Source: Vitreimonas sp.
Lineage (GTDB): Bacteria > Patescibacteriota > Microgenomatia > UBA1400 > PJMF01
Assembly: GCA_035627515.1 (NCBI GenBank)
Contig: DASPLQ010000012.1
Location: 1,199,705-1,263,704 of the forward strand
DNA length: 64,000 bases
Reading direction: 5' to 3'
Position 1 is the stretch's first letter. Each line of letters starts with the position of its first letter. Positions 4,226 through 28,687 of the stretch are shown here, piece after piece. The translations under genes were made by a program, and so were the position numbers. The notes under the pieces are model-generated. The model was not told the DNA's origin. It saw only the letters and a list, made by a program, of their open reading frames with translations, and did no database searches.

Positions 4226-6619
4226 ATGACAAATCAATCTTCTTCACCTGTTCTTCAAGCTCCTCATTGGGTCGATAATGTAGTGGAAAATATCTTAAGT
4301 TGGCAAAAAACTAACCAAGTTGCCAAGCTCCACGTCGACGACATGAAAACTCCTTCTGGCAGGGTGCATACTGGCGCACTGCGCGGAGTCGTCCTTCATG
4401 ATTTAGTTGCCAAAGCCTTAGCAAACAAAGCTCAAGGCGTGGTCAGTACCTATGTCTTTAATGATATGGACGTGATGGATGGTTTACCAACATATTTAAA
4501 TAAAGATATTTATGAACAGCACATGGGCAAACCGCTCTATAAAATTCCCGTGCCAGCTTTAGAAGAGTGTGGCATCGATTTGAGCACGGCTTCAGCTGAA
4601 GAAATTGCCGAGCTGCGATCGGCTAAAAATTTTGCTGAGTTATATGCTATGGATTTTGTGCATGCTTTTAGACGCTTGGGCTGCTCACAACGGCTGGTGT
4701 GGAGTCATGAGTTATATGAAGCGGGTGAAATGGATGAACAGATTCGGACAGCTTTAAACAGTGTGGAAATTGCCCGTAAGATTTATCAAGAAGTAGCTGA
4801 CTACAAATTACCTGAAAAATGGTATCCCTTTCAAGTCATTTGTGAGAACTGTGGCAAGATGGGCACCACTCTGGTCACCGACTGGGATGGCGAACAAGTA
4901 ACCTATGAATGCCAACCAGCTAAGGTCACCTGGGCAGTTGGTTGCGGACATACTAGTAAAACCTTACCTTTTGGGGGTAAGGGCAAGTTACTATGGAAAA
5001 TGGACTGGCCAGCTCACTGGACGAAACTTGGTATTACGATTGAGGGTGCGGGTAAAGATCATACTTCGGCAGGTGGCTCGCGTGATATGGCTAATGCTAT
5101 TGTCACACAAATCTTTGATCAGATAGTCCCCTTCGATATTCCTTACGAGTGGATTTTGATCCGTGGCGCTAAAATGAGCTCAAGTAAAGGCGTCGGCACA
5201 TCTGCCCGAGAGTTTGTGGAACTTTTTCCGCCCCAAATTGGCCGCTTCTTATTTGTGAATAAAGATTATAACCAGGTCATAGATTTTGATCCTAAAACCA
5301 TGGCTATTCCAGATCTTTACGATGCCTATGATGCTGGCGCGCGTATCTTCTGGAAACAAGAAGAAGGCGATCAGCGCTTAGCTCGATCTTTTGAGTTGTC
5401 ACAATTAGAGACACTCCCAGAACCACATTTCTTGCCGCGCTTTAGAGACGTAGCAGTGTGGATGCAACACCCTGAAATTGAGCTCGAAACAAAGTGTGCA
5501 GAAATAAAGGGTAGTCCTTTGAATCAATTAGAAAAAGCGGTCTTAAAAGAGCGCATTCAATACGCTAAAGTGTGGTTGAGCCGCTACGCTCCAGAAGAAT
5601 ACCAACTAACGCCATCTGCAGCAGTTCCTGCCGCGGCTAGTTCTCTGACTCAAGAGCAGAGACTTTATTTAAGTGAAGCGGAGAGATTAATTACTTCCCA
5701 AGCTTGGCAACCTCAAGATTTGCAGCAAGCTTTGTTTGAGTTGGCAAAAAGCTCCTTGGGAGCTCGGCCCGCTTTTGAAGCAATTTACTTAGCCTTTTTA
5801 GGCAAAAAAGCAGGACCTAGAGCAGCCTGGTTTTTATTAGCCATGGATCCCGAGTTTCGTAAACAGCGCATTGAACTCCTGAGTGGAAACCAACCTATTC
5901 AAACACAATTCAAGTTTCCGACTTTGAATAACTCTGCACACTTCAGCTTTCACCCCGACTTCGCTGCCAAATATCCCACTGCAAGTGTCGGCATTGCCAT
6001 TATTCGGGGCGTAACTATTACTAAGAGTTTACCGGAACTTGAACAACACAAGGCTGAATTTATTCAAGAAATCAGTGGCTTAACCACTGACGCAATTAAT
6101 CAATATCCTGAAATTCAGGCTTATCGTCGCATGTACAAGTCAATGGGCATTGATTGGCACTCCCGTCGTCCTAGTCCTGAAGCATTACTGAGACGCGTTA
6201 CCCAGGGAAAGGGACTCTACACGGTCAACACCTGTGTTGATGCCTACAATTTAGTGGTCATGAAACATCGAATTTCAGTTGGTGCGTTTGATTTGAGTCA
6301 AGTTCAGTTTCCCACACAATTAAGAATTGCAGAAGGTGGTGAACAAATCTTATTACTCGGTGACACAGAATCAACTACTCTTAAAACTGGTGAAGTAAGT
6401 TACTTCGACCAACAAGGACCTTATAACCTCGACTATAACTACCGTGATGCTCAGCGAACCATGGTGACAGAAAAAACAACTGATTTATTAATTAACATTG
6501 ATGGTATTGATGAAGCCGATCGGAGTAGAGTGGAAGAGAGTTTAGCTGAAACTATAGAAATTATTCAGCGCTACTGTGGTGGTGAAGTAGAAATGGCCGG
6601 CATCGTCACCGCAGACTAA
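4226..6619 (+). CDS. lysS: lysine--tRNA ligase, class I type, with about 240-aa C-terminal B3/4-like (PheT-type tRNA-binding/editing fold) extension
   Basis: 797 aa. Class-I LysRS signatures PSGRVHTGALRG and KMSSSKG. Residues from about 560 onward resemble the B3/4 domain (NTCVDAYNLVVMKHRISVGAFDLSQV). Confidence 0.8.
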   Translation: MTNQSSSPVLQAPHWVDNVVENILSWQKTNQVAKLHVDDMKTPSGRVHTGALRGVVLHDLVAKALANKAQGVVSTYVFNDMDVMDGLPTYLNKDIYEQHMGKPLYKIPVPALEECGIDLSTASAEEIAELRSAKNFAELYAMDFVHAFRRLGCSQRLVWSHELYEAGEMDEQIRTALNSVEIARKIYQEVADYKLPEKWYPFQVICENCGKMGTTLVTDWDGEQVTYECQPAKVTWAVGCGHTSKTLPFGGKGKLLWKMDWPAHWTKLGITIEGAGKDHTSAGGSRDMANAIVTQIFDQIVPFDIPYEWILIRGAKMSSSKGVGTSAREFVELFPPQIGRFLFVNKDYNQVIDFDPKTMAIPDLYDAYDAGARIFWKQEEGDQRLARSFELSQLETLPEPHFLPRFRDVAVWMQHPEIELETKCAEIKGSPLNQLEKAVLKERIQYAKVWLSRYAPEEYQLTPSAAVPAAASSLTQEQRLYLSEAERLITSQAWQPQDLQQALFELAKSSLGARPAFEAIYLAFLGKKAGPRAAWFLLAMDPEFRKQRIELLSGNQPIQTQFKFPTLNNSAHFSFHPDFAAKYPTASVGIAIIRGVTITKSLPELEQHKAEFIQEISGLTTDAINQYPEIQAYRRMYKSMGIDWHSRRPSPEALLRRVTQGKGLYTVNTCVDAYNLVVMKHRISVGAFDLSQVQFPTQLRIAEGGEQILLLGDTESTTLKTGEVSYFDQQGPYNLDYNYRDAQRTMVTEKTTDLLINIDGIDEADRSRVEESLAETIEIIQRYCGGEVEMAGIVTAD

Positions 6620-7869: not shown

Positions 7870-8060
7870 CTGCATATAGACTAAAAAAGCGCTGGTGATT
7901 AGCACTCGCCATCTCAATACCATTGAGCGCTGATGGGGGAACATCCCATCCGGGTAAGCCCGTGATTGCAGGAATAAGCATATCGAGGTGGCACCGTTCC
8001 TAACCTCAGGAACCCTCTTATCTTCATCACACGTGTGGTGGGTATAAGAGGGTTTTTTTA
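7870..8060 (+). promoter_or_regulatory. putative T-box leader (tRNA-sensing attenuator) upstream of serS
   Basis: 280-nt untranslated leader. Extended -10 TGGTATACT near 7853. GAGGTGGCACCG (7985-7996) resembles the T-box core GGGTGGNACCG. Terminator CCCTCTTAT...ATAAGAGGG + T7 at 8014-8059 lies immediately before the serS RBS. Confidence 0.4.
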
Positions 8061-8080
8061 TGAGTTAACAAAGGAGACAC

Positions 8081-9349
8081 ATGCTTGATATTCAATACAT
8101 TCGCGACCATGCCGAGGAATTAAAGACCGCTATTAGTAATAAACAACTTAACCCTGAAGTGGTAGATCAGGTTTTGGCACATGATGAGCAACGCCGAGAG
8201 TTGATTGTCAAAGTAGAACACATTCGTCAGCAGATTAATGCTAATACTGAGTCCATCAAAACTTCCCCTACTCAACGGCCAACCCCTGAGCAAATTCAAT
8301 TAGGTAAGGAGCTGAAAGCTCAACTTCAAAATGTAGAACCAGAATTAAAAAGAGTAGAAGAAGCTCTTCGAGATTTGATGTCACAAGTCGCTAATCCTCC
8401 TGCTGGCGACGTACCTGTCGGCAAAGATGAGGATGACAATCAAGTCATCAAACAAGTCGGCACCTTACCAACTTTCGAGTTTGAACCCAAACCCCATCAT
8501 GAATTGATGGAAGCCTTGGACATGCTAGATACTAAACGAGCCACTCGGATTGGTGGCTTCCGAAGTTATTTCTTAAAAAATGATGGTTTACTGCTTGAAC
8601 AGGCGTTACTCCAATATGCTCTGCGATTTATGGTGGATCAGGGCTTTACGCCGATGGGTGTACCGATCATGGTCAATAAAGAAGCAATGTGGGGGACTGG
8701 GTACTTTCCTTGGGGTCAAGATGATCACTATAAAACCCAAGATGAGAGTATTTTGGCTGGCACTTCTGAAGTAGCTCTTACCGCCTATCATATGGGTGAA
8801 ACTTTGTCGGAAAAAGATCTGCCGGTTAAAATGGTGGGGATCTCACCATGCTTCCGCCGGGAGATTGGCTCATATGGTAAGGACACGCAGGGAATTATTC
8901 GTGTCCATCAGTTTAATAAGGTTGAGCAAGTAGTCTATACCATTGCCGATGAGGAAGAAACTCGTCGCTGGCACCAAACCATGGTGGGGTTTTCGGAAAA
9001 ACTCCTCACCGATTTGAAGCTCCCTTACCAAGTACTTTTGATGTGTACCGGTGATATGGGTGCCGGCCAGCGTAAAAAATATGATATCGAAACCTGGTTT
9101 CCATCACAACAAAAATACCGAGAAACGCACTCAGCCAGTTACTTCAATGACTTCCAAGCTCGTCGATTAAATATTCGTTACAAGGCTAAGGATGGGAGTA
9201 TGAAGTTTGTTTATACGTTAAATAACACGGTTGCTGCTACGCCGCGCTTGCTGGCTGCAATAATTGAAAATTATCAGCAAGCCGATGGCTCCATTCTAGT
9301 GCCGGAAGTTTTACAAGCGTATATGGGTAAGAGTGTAATTACTCGATAA
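8081..9349 (+). CDS. serS: serine--tRNA ligase
   Basis: 422 aa. Long N-terminal coiled coil. Class-II motifs (GISPCFRREIGSYGKDTQGIIRVHQFNKVE). Confidence 0.9.
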   Translation: MLDIQYIRDHAEELKTAISNKQLNPEVVDQVLAHDEQRRELIVKVEHIRQQINANTESIKTSPTQRPTPEQIQLGKELKAQLQNVEPELKRVEEALRDLMSQVANPPAGDVPVGKDEDDNQVIKQVGTLPTFEFEPKPHHELMEALDMLDTKRATRIGGFRSYFLKNDGLLLEQALLQYALRFMVDQGFTPMGVPIMVNKEAMWGTGYFPWGQDDHYKTQDESILAGTSEVALTAYHMGETLSEKDLPVKMVGISPCFRREIGSYGKDTQGIIRVHQFNKVEQVVYTIADEEETRRWHQTMVGFSEKLLTDLKLPYQVLLMCTGDMGAGQRKKYDIETWFPSQQKYRETHSASYFNDFQARRLNIRYKAKDGSMKFVYTLNNTVAATPRLLAAIIENYQQADGSILVPEVLQAYMGKSVITR

Positions 9350-25595: not shown

Positions 25596-26501
25596 ATGAA
25601 ACTTCTTGCTGGCTCATCTAATCTCCCTTTCGCTCAGTCCCTAGCTCACCAAATGGAGCTTCCACTCATCGACGTAGAGATTAGCCACTTTCCCAATGGC
25701 GAAAAACGGGTATGGGTGAAAGATGAAGTCAAAGGCGAGAACGTAACTATCATCCAATCTTTTGCTGAACCCACCGATCAGCACATCATGGAATTTTTAT
25801 TACTTGCTGACGCTCTGGAAAGACTGGGCGCCCGCCACGTCAACTTAGTCTTACCGTGGATGGGGTACTCACTGCAGGATAAAGCGTTCCGAGCCGGCGA
25901 GCCGATTGCCGCTAAAGTCATTGCTAACCTGGTTTCAAATTCTTACATCAAGCGCGTCTTCTTGCTCGACTTACACAACAGTAGTACTCCCGGCTTTTTC
26001 TCAATCCCTACCCAACATCTTTCAGCCTTAACTTTGTTTGCTGATTATGCCCAGCGCAACTTCGACCTGAATAACTTTATTGTGGCCAGTCCCGATTTTG
26101 GTGGTCTGAAACGCGCTCGGCTTTTTGCTGATAGATTGGGCATTCCCTATATCAACATTGATAAACATCGCGATCTGAGTACCGGTGAACCGACTGCCAT
26201 TAGCCTCAGTGGCGATGTGGAAGGTAAATCAATTTTAATTTTTGATGATGTCATCAACGCCGGTGGCACTATCACCACCACTTCAGCCATTCTTAAAAAA
26301 CACGGTGCCCAACAAGTTCATTTTTTTGCCACTCACGGACCACTTGTCAAAGCAGCCTTTACCAAAATTGATAATTCAGAGGCCGATTCGGTAGTCGTCA
26401 CTAACTCTATTCATCACGATCAAACCTCCGCTAAAGTCCGCACCCTCGATGCAGCACCCATTTTTGCGGAAGAATTAAAGACGTGGTGGAAAGCACGTTG
26501 A
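25596..26501 (+). CDS. prs: ribose-phosphate pyrophosphokinase
   Basis: 301 aa. PRPP-synthetase N-terminal region and PRPP-binding loop (ILIFDDVINAGGT). TGA stop. Confidence 0.85.
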   Translation: MKLLAGSSNLPFAQSLAHQMELPLIDVEISHFPNGEKRVWVKDEVKGENVTIIQSFAEPTDQHIMEFLLLADALERLGARHVNLVLPWMGYSLQDKAFRAGEPIAAKVIANLVSNSYIKRVFLLDLHNSSTPGFFSIPTQHLSALTLFADYAQRNFDLNNFIVASPDFGGLKRARLFADRLGIPYINIDKHRDLSTGEPTAISLSGDVEGKSILIFDDVINAGGTITTTSAILKKHGAQQVHFFATHGPLVKAAFTKIDNSEADSVVVTNSIHHDQTSAKVRTLDAAPIFAEELKTWWKAR

Positions 26502-26539
26502 CAACCTCTGTATAATATTTCTACAAGTTAAGTAAATGT

Positions 26540-26790
26540 CTTAAGAGCTCCCAACTCTTTTCTTAAATCATTTTAAGAGACAGAGAAGTAGACTTCGGAA
26601 TAATCATGGATAAACTTCTCCGGCACAGAGCCGTCATCTTCTCTGACACCAATGTCGTTTTTACAGAGTTGGTGAAAAAGTTCTGAGTTAGCAATAATTC
26701 AGAAAAAGCAAAGTGGTACCGCGTCACTACACGCCTTTGCATATCAATCAAACAGTGGTTTGGTGGATATGTAAGGGCGTTTTTTTATTG
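26540..26790 (+). promoter_or_regulatory. putative T-box leader upstream of Trbp111-proS operon
   Basis: AAAGTGGTACCGCG (26710-26723) matches the T-box core. Terminator ACGCCTTTGCATAT...ATATGTAAGGGCG + T7 at 26731-26786. Stem I-like helix CAGAGAAG/CTTCTCTG (26581-88 / 26638-45), then single-stranded ACACCAA. Confidence 0.55.
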
Positions 26791-26860
26791 GCCATCCACA
26801 GGTAGAAAGTATCCTCGGCACTACAGTATCAACGTCTAGCAGCATAAAGGAGATGACAAC

Positions 26861-27196
26861 ATGAACAAAATTACTATTGCTGATTTTGAAAATATTGACA
26901 TCCGGCTTGGCAAAATTGTGGCAGCTGAATTGCTACCTAATCCTCGTTATACCACACACAAACTAACCATCGATTTTGGTGATGAGTTAGGCAAGAAAAT
27001 CTCAGGGGCACGGTTAATCAACTATCAACCTAATGAACTAGTTGGCAAGCTTATGATAGGAGTTATTAATTTGCAGCCTCGTCAGATTGGTAAAATTATG
27101 TCGGAGGTCTTAACACTGGGAGTTGCGGATCATAAAGGTGACTTTGTGTTGTTATCGCCCCTCTCAGATGTTCCTCTTGGAGGTAAAGTCTGCTAA
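26861..27196 (+). CDS. tRNA-binding domain protein (Trbp111/CsaA/EMAP-like)
   Basis: 111 aa. DFENIDIRLGKIVAAELLPN... is an OB-fold tRNA-binding domain signature. Strong RBS AAGGAGATG. Confidence 0.7.
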   Translation: MNKITIADFENIDIRLGKIVAAELLPNPRYTTHKLTIDFGDELGKKISGARLINYQPNELVGKLMIGVINLQPRQIGKIMSEVLTLGVADHKGDFVLLSPLSDVPLGGKVC

Positions 27197-27241: not shown

Positions 27242-28687
27242 ATGGCAAAACAACAACTAACACCAAAGTCGCAAGACATGAGTAAGTGGTACACGCAAGT
27301 CATTCAACAAGCTAAACTAGCTGATTATTCTCCAGTTAAAGGCTGTATGGTCATGCGTCCCAGTGGCTACGGCATTTGGGAGAATATTCAAAAGACACTA
27401 GACCCTATGTTGAAAGAATTAGGTGTCGAAAATGCTTACTTCCCTTTATTTATTCCCATGTCTTTTTTAAGTCGCGAGGCAGATCACGTTGAAGGCTTTG
27501 CCCCTGAGCTTGCAGTGGTCACACATGGGGGTGGAGAAGAATTAGAAGAGAAATTAGTGGTTAGACCCACATCTGAAACTATCATGTACGAAATGTACAG
27601 TAAATGGGTTCAATCACATCGAGACTTACCTTTGAACCTCAACCAGTGGAATAACGTGGTCCGCTGGGAGAAACGAACCTATTTTTTCTTAAGAACTACC
27701 GAGTTTTTATGGCAAGAAGCTCACACCGCTCATGCCACTCATGAAGAAGAATTTGAGATGGTTCTAAATGCCTTGGAAAAATATCGGACACTGGTCGAGG
27801 ATAACCTAGCTATTCCCGTAGTCAAAGGTCGCAAAAGTACTGCTGAGAAATTTGCTGGGGCTGATTTAACCACAACTATAGAAGCTATGATGCCTGATGG
27901 CAAAGCCTTGCAAGCTGGAACCAGCCACGACCTAGGTCAAAACTTCTCTAAGAAAGAAGCCTTTAATATCTCATTCCTGAATGCTGAAGGCAAAACTGAT
28001 TATGCTTGGCAAACCAGTTATGGCTTATCAACTCGGGTCATCGGGGCATTAATCATGACTCATGGCGATGATGATGGCTTAGTCATTCCTCCCCGCATTG
28101 CTCCAACACAAGTAATGATCGTTCCTGCCCAATCTACTCCTGAATTATTGGGAGAGGCAGTAAAGATTCAAAAACAGTTAAAAGCACAAAATATTCGTGC
28201 GAAAGTTGATACAGACATAGAACATAGTATGGGTTGGAAACTCAATGATGCTGAAATTCAAGGAATTCCAGTCACATTAATCGTTGGTCAGCGTGAATTA
28301 GACGAGGGCAGCTTAACTGCTAATATTCGCTATTCTAAACAAAAACAAAAAATTAACTTGCAAACTGTTACTAAAGATCTTGATGCTTTACTAGAAACTA
28401 TTCAAACCGAAATGTTTGCACAAGCTCAAAAAAGAACTCAGGCACTAACCACTGAAGTGAATTCATTTGATGAGTTCAAGAACGTTATGGAGACCAAGCG
28501 TGGGTTCTTGAAAGCTTTATGGTGTGAAGATGCTGTTTGCGAAAAAGCTATCAAAGAAGAAACCAAAGCTAGTACTCGCTGCTTACCGTTCATTGATGAC
28601 AAAGGTAATGTCAAAGAAGAAACAGGAGTTTGTGTAAAATGTGGCGCAGCTGCAAATCATCGTTGGTTATTTGCACAATCATACTAA
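27242..28687 (+). CDS. proS: proline--tRNA ligase, archaeal/eukaryotic type
   Basis: 481 aa. Class IIa catalytic core. C-terminal zinc-binding domain ending ...CVKCGAAANHRWLFAQSY with C-terminal Tyr. Confidence 0.85.
   Translation: MAKQQLTPKSQDMSKWYTQVIQQAKLADYSPVKGCMVMRPSGYGIWENIQKTLDPMLKELGVENAYFPLFIPMSFLSREADHVEGFAPELAVVTHGGGEELEEKLVVRPTSETIMYEMYSKWVQSHRDLPLNLNQWNNVVRWEKRTYFFLRTTEFLWQEAHTAHATHEEEFEMVLNALEKYRTLVEDNLAIPVVKGRKSTAEKFAGADLTTTIEAMMPDGKALQAGTSHDLGQNFSKKEAFNISFLNAEGKTDYAWQTSYGLSTRVIGALIMTHGDDDGLVIPPRIAPTQVMIVPAQSTPELLGEAVKIQKQLKAQNIRAKVDTDIEHSMGWKLNDAEIQGIPVTLIVGQRELDEGSLTANIRYSKQKQKINLQTVTKDLDALLETIQTEMFAQAQKRTQALTTEVNSFDEFKNVMETKRGFLKALWCEDAVCEKAIKEETKASTRCLPFIDDKGNVKEETGVCVKCGAAANHRWLFAQSY

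Follow-up and report, generated by a model that had tools for sequence, protein, structure and literature searches.

We predict a proline-specific T-box with a short Stem I ("Class III", resembling actinobacterial ileS leaders) at positions 26523-26786 of the window, the whole 64,000-nucleotide stretch of DNA that was analyzed, where it would place an operon for a tRNA-binding protein and ProRS (proS) under transcription attenuation, with a probability of roughly 0.85. The proS leader has a conserved, covarying architecture, mutually exclusive helices, and a loop codon that matches the downstream gene. A sequence-only reading of this locus had already proposed a proline-specific T-box; the T-box call holds on the E-value of the Rfam match, covariation and models built from relatives alone, and the proline call on a CCC Specifier followed by A in the window and CCY in 8/8 proS leaders. 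The earlier proviso that the organism might be of the CPR type is also supported, as the data point to a CPR/Patescibacteria-type bacterium. Features described below are on the plus strand unless stated otherwise.

The leader region is the gap between prs (25596-26501) and the next open reading frame, which begins at 26861. The sole open reading frame of at least 50 aa in this gap is an antisense 62-aa frame (26563-26751), in agreement with the previous description of a non-coding 360-nt gap holding one spurious antisense frame. A consensus scan identified a promoter-like TTGACA-N7-TATAAT (26498-26516, -10 TATAAT at 26511-16), as well as TGGAAA (26487-92) located 18 nt 5' of the -10 TATAAT. 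The TTGACA-N7-TATAAT arrangement is also kept in two orthologous leaders (L082 and L083). Judging from these letters, transcription of the leader probably starts near 26523, and the conserved ACAAGUUAA (26523-26531) is the probable 5' end of the transcript; it is identical in the window leader, L083 and L082, and L001 has ACAAGCG.

The first gene of the operon (26861-27196) encodes a 111-aa tRNA-binding protein of the YgjH/CsaA/Trbp111 family (Pfam PF01588, tRNA_bind; NCBIfam NF007495 at 118.1 bits, where the cutoff is 117). It is followed by proS (27242-28687), which encodes an archaeal/eukaryote-type prolyl-tRNA synthetase (TIGR00408, proS_fam_I, 579 bits; Pfam ProRS-C_1). These matches bear out the earlier assignment of the regulated genes to a Trbp111/CsaA-like protein and an archaeal-type ProRS. 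In L206 and L081, a tRNA-binding protein gene is likewise found directly upstream of proS, and its co-regulation with proS hints that this protein is a candidate cofactor for ProRS or tRNA-Pro. The ProRS of L081 is the closest (78% identity); the sequence of that locus ends inside a small upstream open reading frame.

The T-box core AAAGUGGUACCGCG is present at 26710-26723, where it had been noted before. On its own the short motif (TGGNACCGCG, at most one mismatch) is not significant, with 11 matches versus 5.0 expected. RGTGGNACC also occurs elsewhere in the window (7597, 9545 and 20273, and 21399, 42857 and 61886 on the minus strand); these sites were rejected, being within coding regions and without leader context. 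The purines AAG (26678-80) stand directly 5' of Stem III (26681-26704, 9 bp) in six leaders and correspond to the RAG motif described for T-boxes (PMC11297988). This segment (26678-26704) was identified by covariation and conservation, with 5 of 6 Stem III pairs covarying in the aligned leaders. The antiterminator (26708-26740) comprises helix A1 (GCAAAG/CUUUGC), a 7-nt bulge UGGUACC (26714-20) and helix A2 (GCGU/ACGC). It is the minimum free energy (MFE) fold of 26705-26745 at -9.0 kcal/mol, the Rfam alignment concurs, and both helices covary. The bulge supports the earlier proposal that UGGU implies a tRNA with an ACCA (A73) 3' end.

Folding also finds the terminator hairpin and U7 that the sequence-only reading had placed at 26731-26786. 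This intrinsic terminator consists of a hairpin (26731-26780) of 15 bp with a further 7 bp inside it, at -33.9 kcal/mol, and a U-run at 26780-86. The stretch 26731-40 serves both the hairpin, as 5' strand, and the antiterminator, as 3' strand, and the two helices are mutually exclusive; the fold check suggested earlier thus shows that antiterminator and terminator compete for the strand ACGCCUUUGC. A hairpin and U-run lie 3' of the T-box in 8/8 proS leaders. These bear on whether the element acts mainly on translation, through Shine-Dalgarno sequestration as in actinobacterial Class III elements. In L001 and L082 the start codon is immediately 3' of the U-run and GAGG lies inside the terminator 3' strand, so that sequestration is possible in those leaders. 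In the window, however, the hairpin is followed by U7, and the first start codon comes 75 nt later and has its own AAAGGAG (26848-54), outside all switch helices. Furthermore, all eight proS leaders and a second leader upstream of serS each end with a hairpin and then 6-7 U, and we consider mainly translational action very improbable.

The window was searched with the Rfam T-box model RF00230, which is built on long-Stem-I leaders and has a gathering score of 93 bits. The sole match within the 64 kb was full-length, at 26511-26741, and scored 35.7 bits, below the gathering score, with E = 1.9e-6 on 451 nt and 2.7e-4 on 64 kb. The sequence-only reading had proposed this search and held that lack of a significant hit would count against a T-box; the E-value is significant, but the curated threshold was widely missed. 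RF00230 also matched the orthologous leaders L004 (33.5 bits) and L001 (24.3 bits). Leaders that score 24-36 bits, or find no RF00230 match, will be missed by automated annotation. The fold of the window leader has a z-score of -5.7.

Two covariance models were built with the window excluded, R1 from L206 alone and R2 from five relatives. They recovered window positions 26539-26648 at E = 6e-7 and 7.5e-9, respectively (R2 43.1 bits), and relatives-only modelling gave 0 false matches in 530 kb of other ProRS loci. L001 and L205 were not recovered by R1 or R2; their leaders were assigned by inspection and a weak Rfam match.

Eight leaders, that of the window and those of seven Patescibacteria relatives, share the gene order prs, leader, proS and a common architecture. 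Their 5' halves were aligned on structure through R1 and R2; a MAFFT whole-leader alignment (alignment A1) misaligned them, and alignment A3 misregistered two hairpins. In the 3' part (Stem IIA, Stem IIB, Stem III and helices A1 and A2), 98.2% of alignment cells were paired and 13 of 23 pairs showed compensatory change, a level reached in 0/500 shuffles, and slid controls gave 34-47%. The decoding module was 95.1% paired, with compensatory change in 16 of 22 pairs (0/500 shuffles). At the L083 locus the leader stands before a gene for a proB-like kinase (weak match), and proS comes after that gene.

The decoding module begins with a short Stem I, AAGAG/CUCUU (26543-26559), which closes a 7-nt apical loop, CUCCCAA. 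The comparison places the Specifier CCC at 26550-26552 in this loop, followed by the purine A26553. In each of the eight proS leaders, one hairpin of 5 bp or more, and no other, has CCY and a purine in its loop. Such a hairpin arises by chance in 1-7% of shuffles per leader (summed log10 p = -10.7), and the stems that carry the Specifier loop are unrelated in sequence among the eight. In every leader Stem I forms a 5-7-bp hairpin, with 6/6 pairs covarying, and its apical loops of 5-7 nt follow the pattern NN-codon-purine(-N). Both R1 and R2 align the CCC loop of the window to the loops of the relatives. The third codon position is C in 7/9 Specifiers, a bias that has been explained structurally (PMC7583486).

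Hairpin X (CUUAAA-UCAU-UUUAAG, 26562-26577) lies between Stem I and Stem II, as identified by comparison; seven leaders have a hairpin of variable sequence at this position, with 3/4 pairs compensatory in alignment A6. A basal helix around Stem I and hairpin X, seen in the MFE fold of the serS leader (7888-92/7927-31), was inconsistent across leaders and was rejected. One is possible in the window leader too (GUCU 26538-41/AGAC 26578-81). The lower helix of Stem II (26584-26619), AGAAG(U)/(A)CUUCU at 26584-88/26615-19, occurs in 8/8 leaders with differing sequences (4/5 pairs covarying, 100% of cells paired), and Stem IIA adjoins its 3' strand. The internal loops of Stem II consist largely of purines (GGAAUA, UAA), and aligning the leaders gave no conserved AGUA/GAA pair.

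Stem IIA, CGG-N7-CCG, and the F-box CCGUCA (26631-36) together span 26621-26636 and are invariant in the aligned leaders. Rfam puts them on its own IIA and F-box positions, and CCGUCA is also the F-box of Nocardia farcinica ileS (PMC7583486). The IIA loop CAGAG (26626-30) pairs with CUCUG (26641-45) to form the Stem IIB pseudoknot (26626-26645), which is paired in 5/5 leaders with 4/5 pairs changed on both sides. Downstream, the MFE fold contains a lineage-specific hairpin P (26647-26674; CACCAA 26647-52/UUGGUG 26669-74). Its ACCAAU...GUUGG sequence is kept in the window, L083, L082, L206 and L004 and is absent from L001, L205 and L207. The helix is unproven because its pairs show no covariation. 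As pure speculation, it may pair with the UGGU bulge by mimicking an "ACCA" acceptor end.

This arrangement differs from a canonical long-Stem-I (Class I) T-box, which could be read here in two ways. The sequence-only reading took CAGAGAAG (26581-88) and CUUCUCUG (26638-45) as Stem I and a single-stranded ACACCAA as Specifier; the Rfam alignment implies a Stem I at 26517-26605 with an internal Specifier loop, GAA-GUA-GA, and places AAGUA and GAAGUAGA on its Specifier-loop positions. The first pair of strands is indeed complementary and forms a helix in the MFE fold, and L004 has an equivalent long-range complementarity (GCGGAA/UUCCGC). By energy the comparative structure reaches -22.7 kcal/mol, scored without the pseudoknot and upper Stem II, versus -57.1 for the single-sequence MFE. 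That helix is nevertheless not Stem I. The strand CAGAGAAG belongs to Stem II (AGAAG 26584-88), and CUUCUCUG holds the pseudoknot partner CUCUG, which covaries with the IIA loop. ACACCAA is predicted to be paired rather than single-stranded, as 26647-52 pair with 26669-74 in a hairpin whose sequence is conserved in five leaders, and the comparison and relatives-only models place the Specifier in the apical loop of the short hairpin instead. Most Stem I and Stem II pairs in the Rfam alignment are non-canonical and have low posterior probabilities, and GUA or UAG, the codons it implies, are not those expected of a proS leader. An AG bulge, a distal loop and a K-turn all lack conservation; the GA-rich, K-turn-like flanks described earlier find no conserved K-turn in the window leader, and a K-turn at the Stem I base, plausible as UGA/GA in L001, is absent from the window and most leaders. 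Both canonical Stem I proposals and the ACACCAA Specifier were rejected on this comparative evidence, and a Class I element is highly unlikely.

A compact second T-box of the same short-Stem-I class was identified upstream of serS (8081-9349; TIGR00414, 447 bits) at 7878-8059. R2 matched it at 7890-7977 (29.4 bits, E = 2.3e-5), and RF00230 gave no match at this leader even at E <= 10. Folds and the R2 match place its Stem I at 7893-7911 with loop UUAGCAC and Specifier AGC (7901-03) followed by A. Hairpin X (7914-26), Stem II (7932-50) and the IIA hairpin (7951-62) follow in the folds, as do an antiterminator (7985-8017) with bulge UGGCACC (7989-95) and a terminator (8008-8057) with a U-run at 8053-59. 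The serine codon AGC occupies the loop columns that hold CCY in the proS leaders. Bacterial tRNA-Ser usually carries discriminator base G73 and tRNA-Pro A73, and the UGGC bulge of the serS leader and the UGGU bulge of the proS leader are as expected from these bases. The bulge of the L207 proS leader reads UGGC, a misfit to A73.

The second leader also bears on whether the proS leader might be a decayed relic, in which a prs-proximal promoter and a constitutive or protein-controlled terminator persist and tRNA binding has been lost. Such decay would fit the sub-threshold RF00230 score, the missing tRNA-elbow platform, and the lack of a leader at 4/12 orthologous loci, from which it follows that the leader is dispensable in the lineage. 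In addition, a search of the window, about 9 kb upstream of it (10-kb extension) and 15 related loci found neither a tRNA-Pro nor a tRNA-Ser gene; the only tRNA genes found across these sequences were tRNA-Arg(TCT), tRNA-His(GTG) and tRNA-Lys(TTT). However, compensatory changes keep every helix even though the ProRS proteins are only 58-75% identical, the loop codon remains CCY on unrelated stems, and the leaders retain UGGN bulge, F-box and RAG, while an independent copy with a matching Ser codon precedes serS. Together these indicate purifying selection on a working tRNA sensor, and we regard a relic as unlikely.

Class III T-boxes are defined by a short Stem I that lacks the elbow platform, a Specifier held in a small apical loop, and the presence of a Stem II domain (PMC10482949), and are known from the ileS leaders of N. 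farcinica, Mycobacterium tuberculosis and M. smegmatis ("ultrashort Stem I"). Like these, the window leader has a Stem I that is short and lacks the elbow-binding double T-loop, and its Specifier, with A after it, sits in a small apical loop comparable to the loop CUAUCA (NN-AUC-A) of the high-GC ileS leader L178. The Stem II domain is kept and directly abuts the IIA/B pseudoknot with its F-box CCGUCA, AAG purines precede Stem III, and the 7-nt bulge has the UGGN form. Unlike the ileS leaders, it has additional hairpins X and P, its Stem II 3' strand has no recognizable AGUAGAA S-turn, the leaders here are predicted to be specific for Pro and Ser rather than Ile, and the host belongs to Patescibacteria rather than Actinobacteria. 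R2 gave no match to L178. The output differs as well. Class III elements "mostly" act on translation via Shine-Dalgarno sequestration, which is typical and not strictly defining, and the platform in the window is an intrinsic terminator with U7, the Shine-Dalgarno sequence lying outside the switch. Stem III, A1/bulge/A2, the competing terminator, Stem IIA with F-box, and the attenuation output are shared with Class I leaders of the Bacillus subtilis tyrS type (RF00230), but the long Stem I, K-turn, internal Specifier loop, AG bulge and distal loop of that class are absent. From its sequence, the window leader is best described as a predicted Class III-like (actinobacterial ileS-type) T-box joined to an intrinsic terminator. 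Firmicutes proline T-boxes are long-Stem-I elements that control proS in Clostridia and proBA/proI in Bacilli. The proS leaders here share with them a Pro codon Specifier and predicted control of proS or proline-synthesis genes (the proB-like kinase of L083). We know of no Firmicutes proline T-box that co-regulates a free-standing tRNA-binding protein.

In the proposed mechanism, transcription would start about 7 nt past TATAAT, and the decoding module (5-bp Stem I with CCC+A, hairpin X, Stem II, and IIA/B pseudoknot with F-box) would grip tRNA-Pro by its anticodon loop, the anticodon being NGG and in the simplest case GGG. The 3' ACCA of uncharged tRNA-Pro would pair with the UGGU bulge and stabilize the weak antiterminator (-9 kcal/mol). 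The stabilized antiterminator would block the far stronger terminator (-34 kcal/mol, U7) and allow RNA polymerase to enter the operon. Charged tRNA-Pro would be unable to stabilize the antiterminator, and transcription would stop at approximately 26786. Both tRNA binding by the proS leader and readthrough are steps that we infer.

It is an even bet whether the two leaders belong to a family of minimal T-boxes in Patescibacteria (CPR) with the codon in the apical loop of a Stem I of about 5 bp, no elbow platform, transcription attenuation, several synthetase genes under control (at least proS and serS here), and sub-threshold scores in Rfam. A metagenome pattern scan with CCGG-N7-CCGTNA-N{42,72}-GCRARGTGGTAMC gave no further CPR proS leaders among the matches listed, which were mostly gut Firmicutes T-boxes upstream of cstA-like transporters; only L178 and L090, an AspRS/AsnRS-like leader, were useful among them.

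T-boxes are mainly known from Gram-positive bacteria, and forms with a short Stem I are regarded as actinobacterial elements that act on translation (PMC7583486, PMC10482949). Transcriptional T-boxes have been reported generally to require an elbow-binding distal Stem I for rapid tRNA capture (PMC7583486, PMC10482949), and this element is absent from the window leader. What sets the leaders here apart is the combination of a short-Stem-I decoding module with an intrinsic terminator in ultrasmall CPR bacteria, with predicted Pro and Ser sensing. The serS leader, at about 180 nt, would be a compact engineering scaffold. If the proposed family is real, its members would speak, as natural examples, against a distal Stem I being required in co-transcriptional T-boxes, and would offer a natural system for asking if an anticodon-only grip (Stem I, Stem II and pseudoknot) suits the speed of a co-transcriptional decision. 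T-box regulation would then extend to a superphylum, Patescibacteria, for which the literature examined contains no such description.

The proS leader (26523-26786) appears to be a real, proline-specific short-Stem-I T-box that works by attenuation in a CPR-type host, a reading drawn from sequence comparison to which we assign a probability of about 85%. The sequence-only reading had described the gap as non-coding, with a T-box core and a terminator, and this part of it holds. Downstream of prs (25596-26501), up to the ORF that starts at 26861, an antisense 62-aa frame is the only ORF of at least 50 aa; AAAGUGGUACCGCG is present at 26710-23; and a long hairpin at 26731-80 leads into U7 at 26780-86. 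The fold of 26530-26800 has a stability of z = -5.7 against shuffled sequence. T-box-like decamers with at most one mismatch gave 11 matches versus 5 expected, which by itself is not significant, so the T-box claim must stand on structure and comparison. The segment 26705-26745 folds into an antiterminator (-9.0 kcal/mol) made of A1 (GCAAAG/CUUUGC), the bulge UGGUACC, and A2 (GCGU/ACGC). When downstream sequence is included, the terminator (-33.9 kcal/mol) takes strand 26731-40 from it, and the competition raised as a check in that reading is thus found, with a default state predicted to be "off", as in T-boxes. Directly 5' of Stem III lies AAG, in the same place as the discriminator "RAG" purines (PMC11297988).

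Two further motifs flank the leaders. TTGACA-N7-TATAAT is kept upstream in the window (26498-26516), L082 (2215-2233), and L083 (1307-1325); the 7-nt spacer does not fit a sigma-70 -35/-10 pair, and TTGACA may thus serve otherwise, or the -35 could be a different element (TGGAAA, 26487-92). Right after the terminator, GGCCAUCC(A/G)YAGGUA is kept in the window (26790-26805) and L206 (about 1802-1817), the two leaders with a tRNA-binding-protein gene in the operon.

All eight proS leaders, from the window and seven related contigs, contain one short hairpin whose apical loop holds CCY followed by a purine: AAGAG-CUCCCAA-CUCUU in the window, UUAAGAG-CCCCA-CUCUUAA in L083, UUCGAAG-CCCCA-CUUCGAA in L082, CGUGAG-CCCCUAA-CUCACG in L206, CUAGG-CUCCCA-CCUAG in L205, GCUUGGG-UACCCCG-CCUAAGC in L001, GAUAG-UUCCUAC-CUAUC in L004, and UGCGAG-CCCCA-CUCGCA in L207. 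Dinucleotide shuffling of each 5' region produces such a hairpin by chance in 1-7% of cases; every real leader contains a single one. L207/L208 (2285-2295) has CCC in the Stem I loop but a UGGC rather than UGGU bulge, which in L207 would imply either that the organism has a tRNA-Pro with G73 or that the mismatch is tolerated.

Stem I is followed by a variable hairpin X, Stem II, whose 3' strand adjoins Stem IIA (CGG-N7-CCG), Stem IIA itself, the F-box CCGUCA, and a IIB pseudoknot in which the IIA loop pairs with the strand 3' of the F-box. The IIB pairing is CAGAG/CUCUG in the window, GGCAG/CUGCC in L083, GGUAG/CUACC in L082, CAUGG/CCAUG in L206, and GGCGG/CCGCU in L004. An alternative Stem I, an 8-bp helix at 26581-88/26638-45, had been proposed from the sequence, with the Specifier in a single-stranded ACACCAA. 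Judged against these comparisons, both assignments are wrong: the 3' strand of that helix is the IIB strand, and the helix arises solely because CAGAG is present twice (26581-85 and 26626-30), while ACACCAA is predicted to pair as the 5' strand of hairpin P (26647-52/26669-74) and CCY sits in the Stem I loop. The sequence of hairpin P is kept in five leaders and missing from the three shortest.

Covariation is evident in both halves of the proS leader. When five leaders were aligned with MAFFT over IIA, IIB, Stem III, A1, and A2, 98.2% of cells were paired, with changes on both sides in 13 of 23 pairs, a result equalled by 0 of 500 shuffles; slid-partner controls were 34-47% paired. In a model-based alignment of 7 sequences, the decoding module was 95.1% paired with 16/22 pairs compensatory (6/6 in Stem I), again equalled by 0/500 shuffles, and this alignment leans towards structure because it was fitted to the model. 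Covariance models of the decoding module were also built with the window left out. R1, made from L206 alone with our own structure, matched the window at 26539-26648 (30.8 bits, E = 6e-7) as well as L004, L082, L207, and L083. R2, made from these five relatives, matched the window's proS leader at 43.1 bits (E = 7.5e-9), with CUCCCAA falling on the relatives' loops. ProRS loci of other phyla, 530 kb in all, gave no R2 match at E <= 1 except the L207 duplicate; L001 and L205 were missed by both models.

R2 had a second match in the window (7890-7977, 29.4 bits, E = 2.3e-5), directly upstream of serS (8081-9349; TIGR00414, 447 bits). This serS leader (7878-8059, + strand) is a further T-box, compact at about 180 nt and of the same short-Stem-I class. 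The unguided MFE fold of 7878-8066 gives, all on the + strand, Stem I (7893-7911, loop UUAGCAC), hairpin X, a 7-bp Stem II, IIA as a tetraloop hairpin without pseudoknot, a small Stem III, and a terminator with U7. The sub-fold of 7980-8022 is an antiterminator with the bulge UGGCACC; the IIB pseudoknot and hairpin P are absent. In the structural alignment AGC (Ser), then A, occupies the exact CCY columns of the proS leaders, which fixes the Specifier assignment. The T-box bulge changes from UGGU to UGGC, as predicted from the usual bacterial discriminators, A73 in tRNA-Pro and G73 in tRNA-Ser.

At gathering thresholds Rfam reported two tRNAs and nothing else in the window. With E-value reporting, the proposed RF00230 search gave a full-model match at 26511-26741 that is significant (E = 1.9e-6 on 451 nt, 2.7e-4 on the whole window) but, at 35.7 bits, falls below the gathering score of 93. 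Posterior probabilities were high over its 3' elements (Stem IIA, F-box, Stem III, and T-box), and alignment was poor in Stems I and II, with numerous non-canonical pairs. RF00230 had no match on the serS leader even at E <= 10. The TBDB short-Stem-I model derives from Actinobacteria and RF00230 hits (PMC7778990), so low-scoring leaders such as these would escape it.

Other synthetase and T-box loci were also observed. A class I (archaeal-type) lysyl-tRNA synthetase (4226-6619, + strand) is fused to a C-terminal B3/4 domain, whose fold also occurs in the PheRS beta subunit; the 88-nt gap 5' of its gene had no T-box match with Rfam or R2. A sediment contig (L090, 3700-4100) carries a T-box with a UGGUACC bulge and a terminator with U-run before an AspRS/AsnRS-like gene. 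Two candidate GAC loops are present, and AUCAAGUUA lies close to the 5' end; this could be a further leader of the short-Stem-I type, although R2 had no match on it. Among the metagenome-scan matches listed, many human-gut contigs (within L084-L203) have a T-box leader 5' of a cstA-like carbon-starvation/peptide-transporter gene.

The identical ProRS (P0001) is recorded under "Vitreimonas sp.", an alphaproteobacterial genus. This label is probably wrong, since the contigs that carry the closest ProRS genes (58-78% identity) bear the labels Patescibacteria, Woesebacteria, Roizmanbacteria, and Pacebacteria, and they share with the window the order flavokinase, prs, proS, DUF4258, and farther on HIT, S21, and enolase, all of which indicates Patescibacteria/Microgenomates. 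A restricted literature search found no paper joining a T-box to CPR, Patescibacteria, or Saccharibacteria, which is absence of evidence only. Leader status was scored in 12 informative orthologous loci: a leader lies between prs and proS in L001, L004, L082, L083, L205, L206, and L207, and prs adjoins proS without one in L003, L204, L209, and L212. L081 is arranged as L206, and its sequence ends before the leader position, which is thus outside view. The leader is directly 5' of proS in L001, L082, L205, and L207, and in L206 it is followed by a small ORF and then the tRNA_bind gene. The same leader before different first genes indicates that it predates the tRNA-binding-protein gene. In L083, a 229-aa amino-acid-kinase gene (1787-2476) lies between leader and proS, with glutamate 5-kinase (proB) as best NCBIfam match (47 bits, under cutoff).

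The decoding module of the proS and serS leaders matches that of Class III T-boxes such as N. farcinica ileS, in which a short Stem I lacks the double-T-loop platform, the Specifier lies in an apical loop of five or six nucleotides, and Stem II is required (PMC10482949). [quoted passage not shown] A high-GC ileS leader among the scan matches listed (L178) is similar, with an NN-AUC-A loop and CCGG-N7-CCGUCAUC. [quoted passage not shown] In L001 (2940-3003) and L082 (2445-2503), the proS start codon lies directly 3' of the terminator U-run. The GAGG Shine-Dalgarno sits inside the terminator 3' strand in both, so that one helix could block transcription and translation, and these two leaders may act at both levels.
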